Shown here: positions 20,794 to 22,749 of the stretch, piece after piece
Numbering within the stretch: the first letter of the stretch is position 1
Layout of the letters: every line of letters begins with the position of its first letter
Virus genome (UHGV): UHGV-0233466
DNA length: 22,749 bases
Source: a virus
Direction: 5' to 3' (one strand)
Position numbers and translations under genes: made by a program
Notes under the pieces: model-generated
What the model was told of the DNA's origin: nothing
The model's input: only the letters and a program-made list of their open reading frames with translations
Database searches by the model: none

Positions 20794-21357
20794 TTAGCAT
20801 GATTCAGGGGAAACCCCAATATTAAATATGAGTGACTCCCCTGAATCAGCATAATAATGTAATATTATTGACTTACGTTGTTTTCTTGCTTCGTAGAATA
20901 AACGCTCTTGCGGCGATAATTTGTGAAAACTGCCGGATGCACAATATATGTTTTTTAACTTTTCGCTGGTTGCTTTTATTGTATCTTCTGAGATGTATTT
21001 TAGGTATTTATCCGTATAGATGTTGCTACTATAAGAAATTAATGTTTTGCTGTTGTTGTGATGTATTGTATTTTTATCGTTGAAGTCTGTATTTTTATTT
21101 ACTGTCATTAGGTTTTTAATGATTACATGTAATACAATAGTCTCCCCATCATCAATTCCATATTTGATGTCATAGTCAGTATATTTATTTGTTATACCGC
21201 TTCCTGATAGCGGCACTATGTACTCTGAGAAAAATGAGTTTGCCGCGTGACCATCAAGAGCAATAGCTGTTTTTTTGTGGTAAAAATAAAACAATATTGA
21301 GAGAGTCAAAATAATAGCGACGCCTAATGCAACCTTTAATATAGATATGGTTTTCAA
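20794..21357 (-). CDS. AT-rich membrane-anchored protein (about 187 aa from a TTG start with a strong SD; alternative ATG at 21384); positional analogue of a superinfection-exclusion gene
   Basis: AGGAG (complement of 21365-21369) 7 nt upstream of TTG at 21357; N-terminal hydrophobic helix ISILKVALGVAIILTLSILFYFY followed by an Asn/Tyr/Lys-rich soluble domain; GC far below the neighbouring virion genes. Confidence 0.5.
   Translation of the reverse strand: MKTISILKVALGVAIILTLSILFYFYHKKTAIALDGHAANSFFSEYIVPLSGSGITNKYTDYDIKYGIDDGETIVLHVIIKNLMTVNKNTDFNDKNTIHHNNSKTLISYSSNIYTDKYLKYISEDTIKATSEKLKNIYCASGSFHKLSPQERLFYEARKQRKSIILHYYADSGESLIFNIGVSPESC
20800..20848. repeat. 12-bp perfect inverted repeat TGATTCAGGGGA / TCCCCTGAATCA with 25-bp spacer, at the junction of the virion module and the AT-rich leftward module
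   Basis: Read directly; overlaps the 3' end of the leftward membrane-protein gene; contains an inner GGGG-AAA-CCCC hairpin. Confidence 0.8.
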
Positions 21358-21447: not shown

Positions 21448-21879
21448 CTATTCAGGTATTTCAATTCCAAAACCATCTGCATCCCATGAGTTTTCACAGA
21501 TGATGTAACCTAGTTCATTGAGCTTATTAAATGTTTTTTCAAAGATGATCTGGTAATCATTATCTGCAAGTGATTCCAGTTCAAGGTCATTAAGGTTTAT
21601 ATAAAAACTTGTATGTCCAAGTGTTATTTTCTTATTAATTTCATTAAAGGTTCTTTTGAAAATAATATTTGATATTTCATGCCGTGCATTGTTTGCAATA
21701 ATTTTTGCTTCATAAGCAGAAATTACGTCATCTTCATGAATATCTTTCAGAAAGCTGGTGTCAAGACGTTGTACTATTTCAGCGTTCATTGATCGCTTAT
21801 TGGCTTTTGCAGAAATTTCTATTTTTTCTTTTACTTCAACGGGAAGTCTGATCCTTAGTTGTGGATCTTCTCTGCTCAT
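21448..21879 (-). CDS. Mnt-type ribbon-helix-helix repressor fused to an uncharacterised C-terminal domain of about 95 aa (143 aa total)
   Basis: N-terminus MSREDPQLRIRLPVEVKEKIEISAKANKRSMNAEIVQRL closely parallels recalled P22 Mnt (MARDDPHFNFRMPMEVREKLKFRAEANGRSMNSELLQIV); ATG at 21879 with GGTGAAG upstream; the track ORF extends further to a TTG start. Confidence 0.65.
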   Translation of the reverse strand: MSREDPQLRIRLPVEVKEKIEISAKANKRSMNAEIVQRLDTSFLKDIHEDDVISAYEAKIIANNARHEISNIIFKRTFNEINKKITLGHTSFYINLNDLELESLADNDYQIIFEKTFNKLNELGYIICENSWDADGFGIEIPE

Positions 21880-21915
21880 GTTCTTCACCAAATATTGAGT
21901 TACTTGCAATGATTG

Positions 21916-21965
21916 AAGTATGCCTCACCGTGTGCTTGACATCAATGACGCACGGTGTGACAATT
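21916..21965. promoter_or_regulatory. divergent overlapping promoters and operator region of an immI-like switch
   Basis: Rightward TTGACA (21936-21941), 17 bp, GACAAT; leftward TTGATG (complement of 21942-21947), 17 bp, CATACT; the two -35 boxes are back to back in TTGACATCAA; flanking direct repeats ACCGTGTG / ACGGTGTG. Confidence 0.45.
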
Positions 21966-21999
21966 GTTTTGCCCCACGGTGGGGCTAAGGAGATATGAA

Positions 22000-22167
22000 A
22001 TGCAAAAAGCAAAAGAGATGTGTCAACGACGAGTTCGTTTTCCGGACGATGTGAAGTTAGCTATTGAAAGAAATGGCGAAAAAGAATGCCGAAAGTTCAA
22101 TACAGAGATTATCTATCAGCTGAGGAAAGTGTATGGACTCACTGGTGAGAAGAATAGCGTGGCATAA
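22000..22167 (+). CDS. Arc-like ribbon-helix-helix repressor (55 aa)
   Basis: ATG 22000 with AAGGAGA 6 nt upstream; RVRFPDDVKLAIERNGEKECRKFNTEIIYQL parallels recalled P22 Arc (NLRWPREVLDLVRKVAEENGRSVNSEIYQRV); the track start at 21964 is TTG. Confidence 0.65.
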   Translation: MQKAKEMCQRRVRFPDDVKLAIERNGEKECRKFNTEIIYQLRKVYGLTGEKNSVA

Positions 22168-22240
22168 AACAGCGAAGCCCAACGGTGGCCAGACCGTCAT
22201 GGCTTCAGTATCGTAAAACTACGTATAGGAATTAACGACA
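22165..22240 (-). ncRNA. predicted sar-like small antisense RNA covering the ant translation start
   Basis: Minus-strand promoter TTGATA (complement of 22269-22274), 17 bp, TATACT (complement of 22246-22251), giving a start near 22239; minus-strand terminator hairpin GAAGCC...GGCTTC (22174-22206) followed by GCUGUUUU; same arrangement as P22 sar. Confidence 0.4.
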
Positions 22241-22749
22241 TGACGAGTATAGCAACAGCGGTATCTACTATCAACGTGCCATTCCACGGCGTAGAACTTT
22301 ATGTTGTCAATCACAACGGCGAACCGTACACACCAATGAAGCCTATCGTTGAGGGAATGGGTATGGATTGGGCTTCACAGTTTACGAAAATGAAGCAGCG
22401 GTTTAAAACCTGCATTGTGAAAATCACAATGCAGCTTCCTGGGGATGAACAGCGCCGTGAGATTATTTGTTTGGCACTTCGCAAACTTGCTGGCTGGTTG
22501 CAAACCATCAGCCCTAACAAAGTCCGTCCTGAAATCCGCGACAAGGTAATCCAGTATCAGGAAGAGTGTGACGATGTGCTCTACGAGTACTGGACTAAAG
22601 GCCATGTGGTTAACCCACGCAAAGCTAAAAAGGCGTTGCCGGGTAAAATAACCACTGAACAGCAGGAAGCCATTAAACAACTCGTCATGAGTCGCGGTCA
22701 GTCTCTGCCAAAAGAAAAACAGGCTAAGGCGATGATCACCATGTGGTCG
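22240..22749 (+). CDS. antirepressor (Ant-like, AntA-type N-terminal domain), 5' part only; runs off the window end
   Basis: ATG 22240 with AGGA upstream; open frame of 170 codons to the window edge; motif PFHGVELYVVNHNGEPYTPMKPIVEGMGMDW recalled from phage antirepressors; position after arc. Confidence 0.65.
   Translation, partial: MTSIATAVSTINVPFHGVELYVVNHNGEPYTPMKPIVEGMGMDWASQFTKMKQRFKTCIVKITMQLPGDEQRREIICLALRKLAGWLQTISPNKVRPEIRDKVIQYQEECDDVLYEYWTKGHVVNPRKAKKALPGKITTEQQEAIKQLVMSRGQSLPKEKQAKAMITMWS

Follow-up and report, generated by a model that had tools for sequence, protein, structure and literature searches.

A long-form Mnt-type repressor with a conserved C-terminal extension and three putative operators in a P22-type immI module

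Mnt and Arc are the textbook models of DNA recognition by ribbon-helix-helix (RHH) proteins and of the second immunity region of phage P22. The P22 Mnt repressor, an 83-residue protein made of Pfam domains Arc (PF03869) and Repressor_Mnt (PF11423), with structures 1MNT and 1QEY, reportedly depends on its C-terminal tetramerisation domain to bind its operator strongly (Waldburger and Sauer 1995). Among other RHH regulators, NikR and MetJ are controlled by ligands, and the C-terminal domain of NikR sets both the oligomeric state of the protein and the spacing of its DNA sites.

The window discussed here, i.e. the whole stretch of 22,749 nucleotides analysed from UHGV virus genome UHGV-0233466, is 99.2% identical to Escherichia phage TL-2011b. 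It holds a complete P22-type immI module, comprising Pant, an Arc-like gene, the sar RNA and ant. Opposite Pant lies a gene coding for an RHH protein considerably longer than Mnt. Its C-terminal part had been singled out, in a prediction made from the DNA letters, as a region unlike the tail of P22 Mnt that could act as a sensor or effector. Synteny and operators strongly support the view that this region makes up the last two-thirds of a maintenance repressor of the ant operon, of Mnt type but in a long form. The C-terminal domain of this long form has neither a model nor a described role in annotated families, and our literature search found no study of a long-form Mnt-type repressor.

An intact gene for a 143-residue repressor

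The open reading frame proposed by the program starts with a TTG codon at 21909 and codes for 153 residues (21448-21909, minus strand). Every homologue, among 120, begins with MSREDPQ, so that the real start is the ATG at 21879 and the protein is 143 residues long, ending at a stop codon in 21448-21450. Residues 45-143 are the peptide quoted in the original prediction, the first of them, K45, lying one codon outside the range 21448-21744 that went with it (codon D46 begins at 21744). Pfam recognizes solely Arc (PF03869) in the 143-residue protein, at residues 2-46 (E 1.1e-14), and has no match at E<=1 for the remaining 97 residues; no NCBIfam model matches the C-terminal part, and PADLOC has no match for the repressor or for that part of it. 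PHROG 1388 (phrog_1388), labelled 'unknown function', covers the whole protein, residues 1-143 falling on profile positions 1-143 (E 5.1e-72). This is the repressor's own family, which NCBI names 'Arc family DNA-binding protein', of 142-152 residues, in Enterobacterales prophages.

A search of 5.8 billion proteins retrieved 262 clusters of homologues, nearly all 142-152 residues long, 58-69% identical and collinear from end to end, in Citrobacter, Enterobacter, Yersinia, Proteus, Hafnia, Serratia and other host genera. The long form was found in 505 IMG/VR stretches, with single sequence clusters counting hundreds of contigs from Enterobacter and Yersinia pestis, and its cassette is carried by podo-, sipho- and myo-type as well as filamentous prophages. 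Retention at full length in 262 clusters indicates a region under selection, not a chance open reading frame; with the intact 143-residue protein of the window, it bears out the reality of the long C-terminal region. The original prediction had also considered that a frameshift or sequencing error might have fused two genes. This we hold to be next to impossible and have discarded, for the full-length architecture is kept throughout these clusters, in Enterobacterales and beyond. To be sure, an indel does exist in this gene, in the related TL-2011b and not in the window, where the gene is intact and collinear with its homologues. DNA alignment with the window shows one extra G near codon 9 of the TL-2011b copy (GGG versus GG), and the resulting frameshift explains why that copy, gp40, is annotated as a 113-residue hypothetical protein starting from an internal methionine. 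As the indel breaks the gene while the window copy is intact, it was dismissed too as the source of the long reading frame. The extra G is either a sequencing error in the reference or a true inactivating mutation; the identical intact 143-residue protein is encoded by 14 IMG/VR contigs.

The N-terminal RHH domain has PQLRIRLP as its beta-strand, with Q7, R9 and R11 in what would be the DNA-facing positions. Sequence matches in the PDB (pArc, AmrZ, Mnt 1mnt with E 1.8e-7, and Arc) fall on this part, and the whole-family profile, compared with all PDB chains, gave no match outside it. A recent entry, chain G of PDB 9pio, a 79-residue 'Arc family DNA-binding protein', also matches the RHH part (E 1.9e-5). 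In an AlphaFold2 model of the monomer (58-sequence alignment, mean pLDDT 79.7), the RHH domain is followed by a linker devoid of regular secondary structure (pLDDT 64 for residues 41-50), by the long helix and then by a strand (91-95), a helix (106-123) and a beta-hairpin. Modelled alone, also as a monomer, residues 46-143 reach a pLDDT of 84.4 and a pTM of 0.69, with the order alpha1, beta1, short helix, alpha2, beta2, beta3. Residues 87-143 are strongly acidic (pI 4.05). They are predicted to pack against the C-terminal half of helix 55-86, and together helix and module would adopt a winged-helix-like topology, weakly resembling that of cullin WHB, JetB and MAGE. A BFVD structure search gave no match at E<=0.001 (best E 1.9e-3); the matches are uncharacterised phage proteins of about 90 residues in which the fold stands alone (TM 0.65-0.7). 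Two small PHROG families of unknown function, phrog_31943 and phrog_5321, match the repressor weakly.

What selection has kept in this region is mainly structural. In an alignment extending to relatives of just 24% identity, the C-terminal positions that are conserved throughout are limited to A55, A58, I81, G88, L120, G124 and Y125, small, glycine or hydrophobic residues suited to packing and turns, and the same alignment displays no conserved polar cluster or ligand-type site in the C-terminal region. An acidic amphipathic segment, D-L-E-L-E...DDD-F, is conserved as well, being loosely kept even in distant relatives. Searching 1.84 billion representative proteins with an HMM of residues 46-143 yielded 46 clusters, nearly all of them proteins of about 140 residues with an Arc-type RHH domain in front. 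The exceptions are short, probably truncated calls and one repetitive protein of 1364 residues, with repeated matches to the helix only. Fusion of the domain to other DNA-binding folds, which the original prediction had suggested looking for, was absent from these 1.84 billion representatives.

What, then, does the long form share with Mnt? Using a P22 Mnt sequence that matches the P22 genome exactly, BLASTP aligns residues 1-86 of the repressor with Mnt 1-83 at 32% identity, the Arc-type RHH domain included, and profile-profile comparison of the two families (hhalign) aligns 1-83 against 1-80 with a probability of 98%, a score that stems from the RHH domain. Both methods put the long C-terminal helices in the same register (repressor/Mnt: A58/A56, A62/A60, F74/F72, F78/L75), the four Mnt residues being invariant or nearly so in Mnt. 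The C-terminal profile alone falls into this register against the Mnt profile at a non-significant level (E 0.06, probability 0.9%). Helix 55-86 is probably a diverged counterpart of the Mnt tetramerisation helix. By contrast, PF11423, found in all true Mnt homologues (120 among the matches listed), has no match at E<=1 in the long-form repressor, which is 60 residues longer than P22 Mnt and has an added acidic beta-alpha-beta-beta module of about 57 residues (87-143) to which nothing in the 83-residue Mnt corresponds. The tail said to be unlike that of Mnt is unlike it in this module and in the undetected PF11423, and probably not in its helix; the opposite reading, that the region is just a diverged Mnt tetramerisation domain, probably suits the helix (in register, with E=0.06 when taken alone) and does not cover residues 87-143.

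Table 1. Coordinates of the features under discussion (positions are those of the window unless another sequence is named)
Feature	Position	Strand	Basis and remarks
Long-form Mnt-type repressor CDS	21448..21879	-	143 aa + stop; ORF, homologue N-termini, PHROG 1388
Arc/Mnt ribbon-helix-helix DNA-binding domain	residues 1-44, 21748..21879	-	Pfam, PDB sequence matches, hhalign
Acidic linker	residues 45-54, 21718..21747	-	low model confidence
Long helix	residues 55-86, 21622..21717	-	AlphaFold2 helix 55-86; alignment to Mnt residues 53-80
Acidic beta-alpha-beta-beta module	residues 87-143, 21451..21621	-	no counterpart in P22 Mnt
Indel site relative to TL-2011b	21853-21855 (codon 9-10); NC_019445.1 / JQ011317.1 around 30848-30911
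Pmnt (inferred)	21917..21945	-	-35 TTGATG 21945..21940, 17-nt spacer, -10 CATACT 21922..21917
O1 (putative operator)	21922..21935	.	GCCTCACCGTGTGC; abuts Pant -35, inside spacer of inferred Pmnt
Pant-like promoter	21936..21964	+	TTGACA, 17 nt, TG-n-GACAAT; scan 10/12 with TG; layout as P22 Pant
O2 (putative operator)	21947..21961	.	GACGCACGGTGTGAC; imperfect palindrome, CACGGTG core, overlaps Pant -10
O3 (putative operator)	21971..21985	.	GCCCCACGGTGGGGC; 15-bp perfect palindrome just downstream of Pant -10
Arc-like 55-aa RHH gene	22000..22167	+	ORF, Arc-type PHROGs
sar antisense RNA	22171..22238	-	Rfam RF00262, 43.6 bits (gathering score 43), E 1.6e-7
sar promoter	22274..22246	-	promoter scan
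sar terminator	22195..22176	-	terminator scan
ant, 5' part	22240..22749	+	TL-2011b 'anti-repressor Ant'; runs off window
Homologue in L011 (Pseudomonas phage PfAC03)	2400-2923		annotated start GTG, 164 aa, upstream of conserved MSREDPQ
Homologue in L172	630-1217		metagenomic contig, 31% identity, divergent from excisionase-like gene, three palindromic sites

The immI setting and its putative operators

As in P22, the gene is divergent from an arc-sar-ant unit within an immI module. The Pant-like promoter is predicted to drive arc-ant. On the repressor side, the candidate promoter Pmnt scores 8/12, which is below the threshold of the promoter scan, and it was read from the sequence and from a conserved ATTATG beside O1; on the repressor strand this motif is CATAAT, the -10 of Pmnt in most relatives, and it stands there 17 nt from TTG(A/C)(T/A)G. 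The sar RNA ends 2 nt upstream of the ant ATG and covers the ribosome-binding region, again as in P22. In TL-2011b this RNA is unannotated. The Arc-like protein has CQRRVRFP as its beta-strand, hence the pattern Q-x-R-x-R that it has in common with the long repressor.

The repressor gene sits between genes for virion internal proteins and the Pant/Arc-like/sar/ant block, with a GC content of about 30% against about 46% in the flanks, its downstream neighbour being equally AT-rich. Inside Enterobacter and Yersinia pestis prophages, the repressor/Arc-like/ant cassette is lodged in tail-gene clusters. The divergent Arc-like gene is present in 79 of 80 related IMG/VR loci, where antirepressors belong to three different, unrelated types; a relative with 32% identity has the same arrangement next to P22_AR_N, and the genes downstream of the repressor vary from locus to locus. 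In the window, the downstream gene (20794-21357, or 21405, minus strand; 187-203 residues, approximately 30% GC) has an N-terminal hydrophobic stretch and occupies the position of sieA and ORF59 in P22. It matches phrog_8033, of unknown function (E 1e-127), shows a faint TIR-like PADLOC match (ThsB, E 0.005) and is not conserved beside the repressor in other phages; it is a candidate superinfection-exclusion or defence moron.

P22 has a single mnt operator, AGGTCCACGGTGGACCT, immediately after the Pant -10. O3 lies at the equivalent place and has the same central nine bases, CCACGGTGG. The long-form loci differ from those of the P22 type in having three operators, not one, of which O1 would lie inside the repressor's own promoter. 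Three strict CAC[CG]GTG sites, spaced by 25 and 24-27 bp, were counted in 44 of 51 distinct long-form upstream regions, most of the other seven showing a change at the central base only. Among 39 distinct upstream regions of P22-type Mnt loci, 37 keep arc-ant, and all 37 have a single site. The sequence of O2 is invariant in nearly all of the 51 regions; most long-form loci have one and the same 14-15-bp palindrome at O1 and O3, so the same protein is expected at both. In the window, O1 is a degenerate copy of the family palindrome, GCCCCAC-S-GTGGGG, and its place in the spacer of the candidate Pmnt would imply autorepression of the gene, which would set it apart from P22 mnt. A fourth operator-like copy, at 22177-22188, was dropped, being located in the stem of the sar terminator.

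Which protein the array belongs to is best seen where Arc is missing. Relatives with 31-40% identity that face an excisionase gene, and have no Arc partner, possess three-site arrays as well. As a case in point, ORF7 of the Pf inovirus PfAC03 (40% identity) has the two-domain architecture of the long repressor and, like the L172 homologue (31%), is accompanied by three palindromic sites, GGACCAC-S-GTG(G/A)TCC, around a TTGACA promoter; the difference is that it faces an excisionase gene, not arc-ant, and does so in a filamentous phage. Where a relative reads K-A-R instead of Q-R-R in the beta-strand, its three sites are of the form TTCA-N3-TGA. Persistence of the arrays without Arc, and the change of the sites along with the beta-strand, tie the array to the long repressor rather than Arc. 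In some Pf phages an Arc-family gene takes the place of the repressor gene pf4r, which its insertion deletes (PMC7549136); from this and from its position, the Arc-family protein of PfAC03 is probably the main immunity repressor there.

Possible roles of the C-terminal extension

We propose that the C-terminal extension equips the repressor for oligomerisation and for cooperative action at its three operators, a proposal that we regard as evenly balanced between right and wrong. It combines a helix in the position of that of Mnt, a conservation that is structural only and the presence of three operators. N-terminal RHH dimers would read palindromes of 13-15 bp with a CAC-S-GTG core. Beyond a flexible linker (45-54), helix 55-86 would join these dimers into tetramers, as in Mnt, and the 87-143 module would add contacts between repressors sitting at neighbouring operators, 24-29 bp apart. 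With O1 in the spacer of the repressor's own promoter, O2 over the -10 of Pant and O3 at its start, Pant would be repressed tightly and cooperatively, and the repressor would limit its own synthesis through O1 by negative autoregulation. NikR, where RHH dimers are joined by a C-terminal alpha/beta domain, is alike in this general logic only: the long repressor has no sequence or fold match to it, NikR_C/ACT being a beta-alpha-beta-beta-alpha-beta fold with metal ligands where the long form has one beta-alpha-beta-beta unit, and no set of His or Cys residues is conserved in the C-terminal region of the family alignment.

The assembly model has its own difficulties. It is weakened by the fact that the association between three operators and the long form is one evolutionary contrast, essentially between two lineages. 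A spacing of 24-29 bp, variable and non-integral in helical turns, argues against a rigid assembly, and the structure models are all of the monomer. The Arc-like partner, with its identical Q-x-R-x-R strand, could occupy some of the sites, especially the invariant O2. In a more sober interpretation, which we find distinctly unlikely, residues 45-143 are just a bulkier tetramerisation domain, one tetramer being bound to O3, with O1 and O2 functioning as Arc-like sites or as elements of the promoters. The helix does align with that of Mnt, O3 is equivalent to Omnt, O2 is found where P22 has its Arc operator, between -35 and -10, and the strand pattern is common to both proteins; yet the three-site arrays of PfAC03 and L172 exist in spite of the lack of an Arc-like gene, and the identity of O1 and O3 in most loci calls for one protein at both.

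It is just as conceivable that another protein docks on the conserved D-L-E-L-E...DDD-F segment, a possibility that brings us back to the original idea of a sensor or effector. Such a domain is not supported as it stands, with conserved C-terminal positions that are small, glycine or hydrophobic and a domain never fused to other DNA-binding folds among the 1.84 billion representatives. In a form that we consider possible if doubtful, the 87-143 module would bind a small molecule, or a protein from phage or host, releasing the repressor from Pant and making ant inducible. The strong acidity of the module, its amphipathic segment maintained in distant relatives, its weak topological likeness to winged-helix modules engaged in protein-protein interactions (cullin WHB, JetB, MAGE), the occurrence of similar folds as stand-alone uncharacterised phage proteins of about 90 residues, and the general precedent of ligand control in NikR and MetJ are all compatible with this. 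Against it, the members of the family have no polar or ligand-type residue in common, nothing matches sensor, ACT or NikR_C families, and no conserved third gene that might code for the partner was found: downstream neighbours vary and ant comes in three unrelated types. Narrower still, and unlikely in our opinion, is the suggestion that the module is a docking surface for an inactivating factor of phage or host origin, making the long form a signal-responsive Mnt, with the stand-alone versions of about 90 residues in lytic phages possibly acting as decoys. Finally, an antitoxin-like organization, with the RHH domain as repressor and the C-terminal domain neutralising an adjacent toxin such as the product of the AT-rich downstream gene of 187 residues, appears highly improbable. 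That gene is not conserved with the family, its place being taken by DUF6246 in the opposite orientation or by other genes; it is set apart from the repressor gene by a hairpin and by separate promoter-like sites; the conserved partner, arc-ant or xis, is on the other side; and PADLOC does not match the repressor.

If the extra domain of the assembly model does organize cooperative binding to three operators, a well-known genetic switch exists in a different design, which would explain the silence of ant and, in Pf phages, of the excisionase gene. Were docking to prevail, the expression of ant, and with it prophage induction or escape from superinfection immunity, would be conditional rather than locked off. 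An immediate gain is a better annotation of the large group of proteins now named 'Arc family' or 'hypothetical', together with a corrected reference gene for TL-2011b.

The operators of individual loci show some further variation. In both families, the central base of the palindrome switches freely between C and G, and is sometimes A or T, in otherwise identical operators, which fits a position that the protein would not read. Two types of half-site are in circulation, GCCCCAC and GTCACAC. In L058 and L073, O3 is made of O2-type half-sites (GTCACAC-C-GTGTGAC) or is a hybrid (GCCCCAC-G-GTGTGAC). These types might distinguish binding by the Arc-like protein from binding by the long repressor; in arc-containing loci, the two proteins may also share sites. 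A last case is that of L048 (IMGVR_UViG_2808606796_000003), where a single hybrid operator, GCCTCACGGTGGGGC, precedes the repressor gene and the Pant/O2 segment is missing. The promoter seems to have been lost when O1 recombined with O3, in which case arc-ant should be silent.
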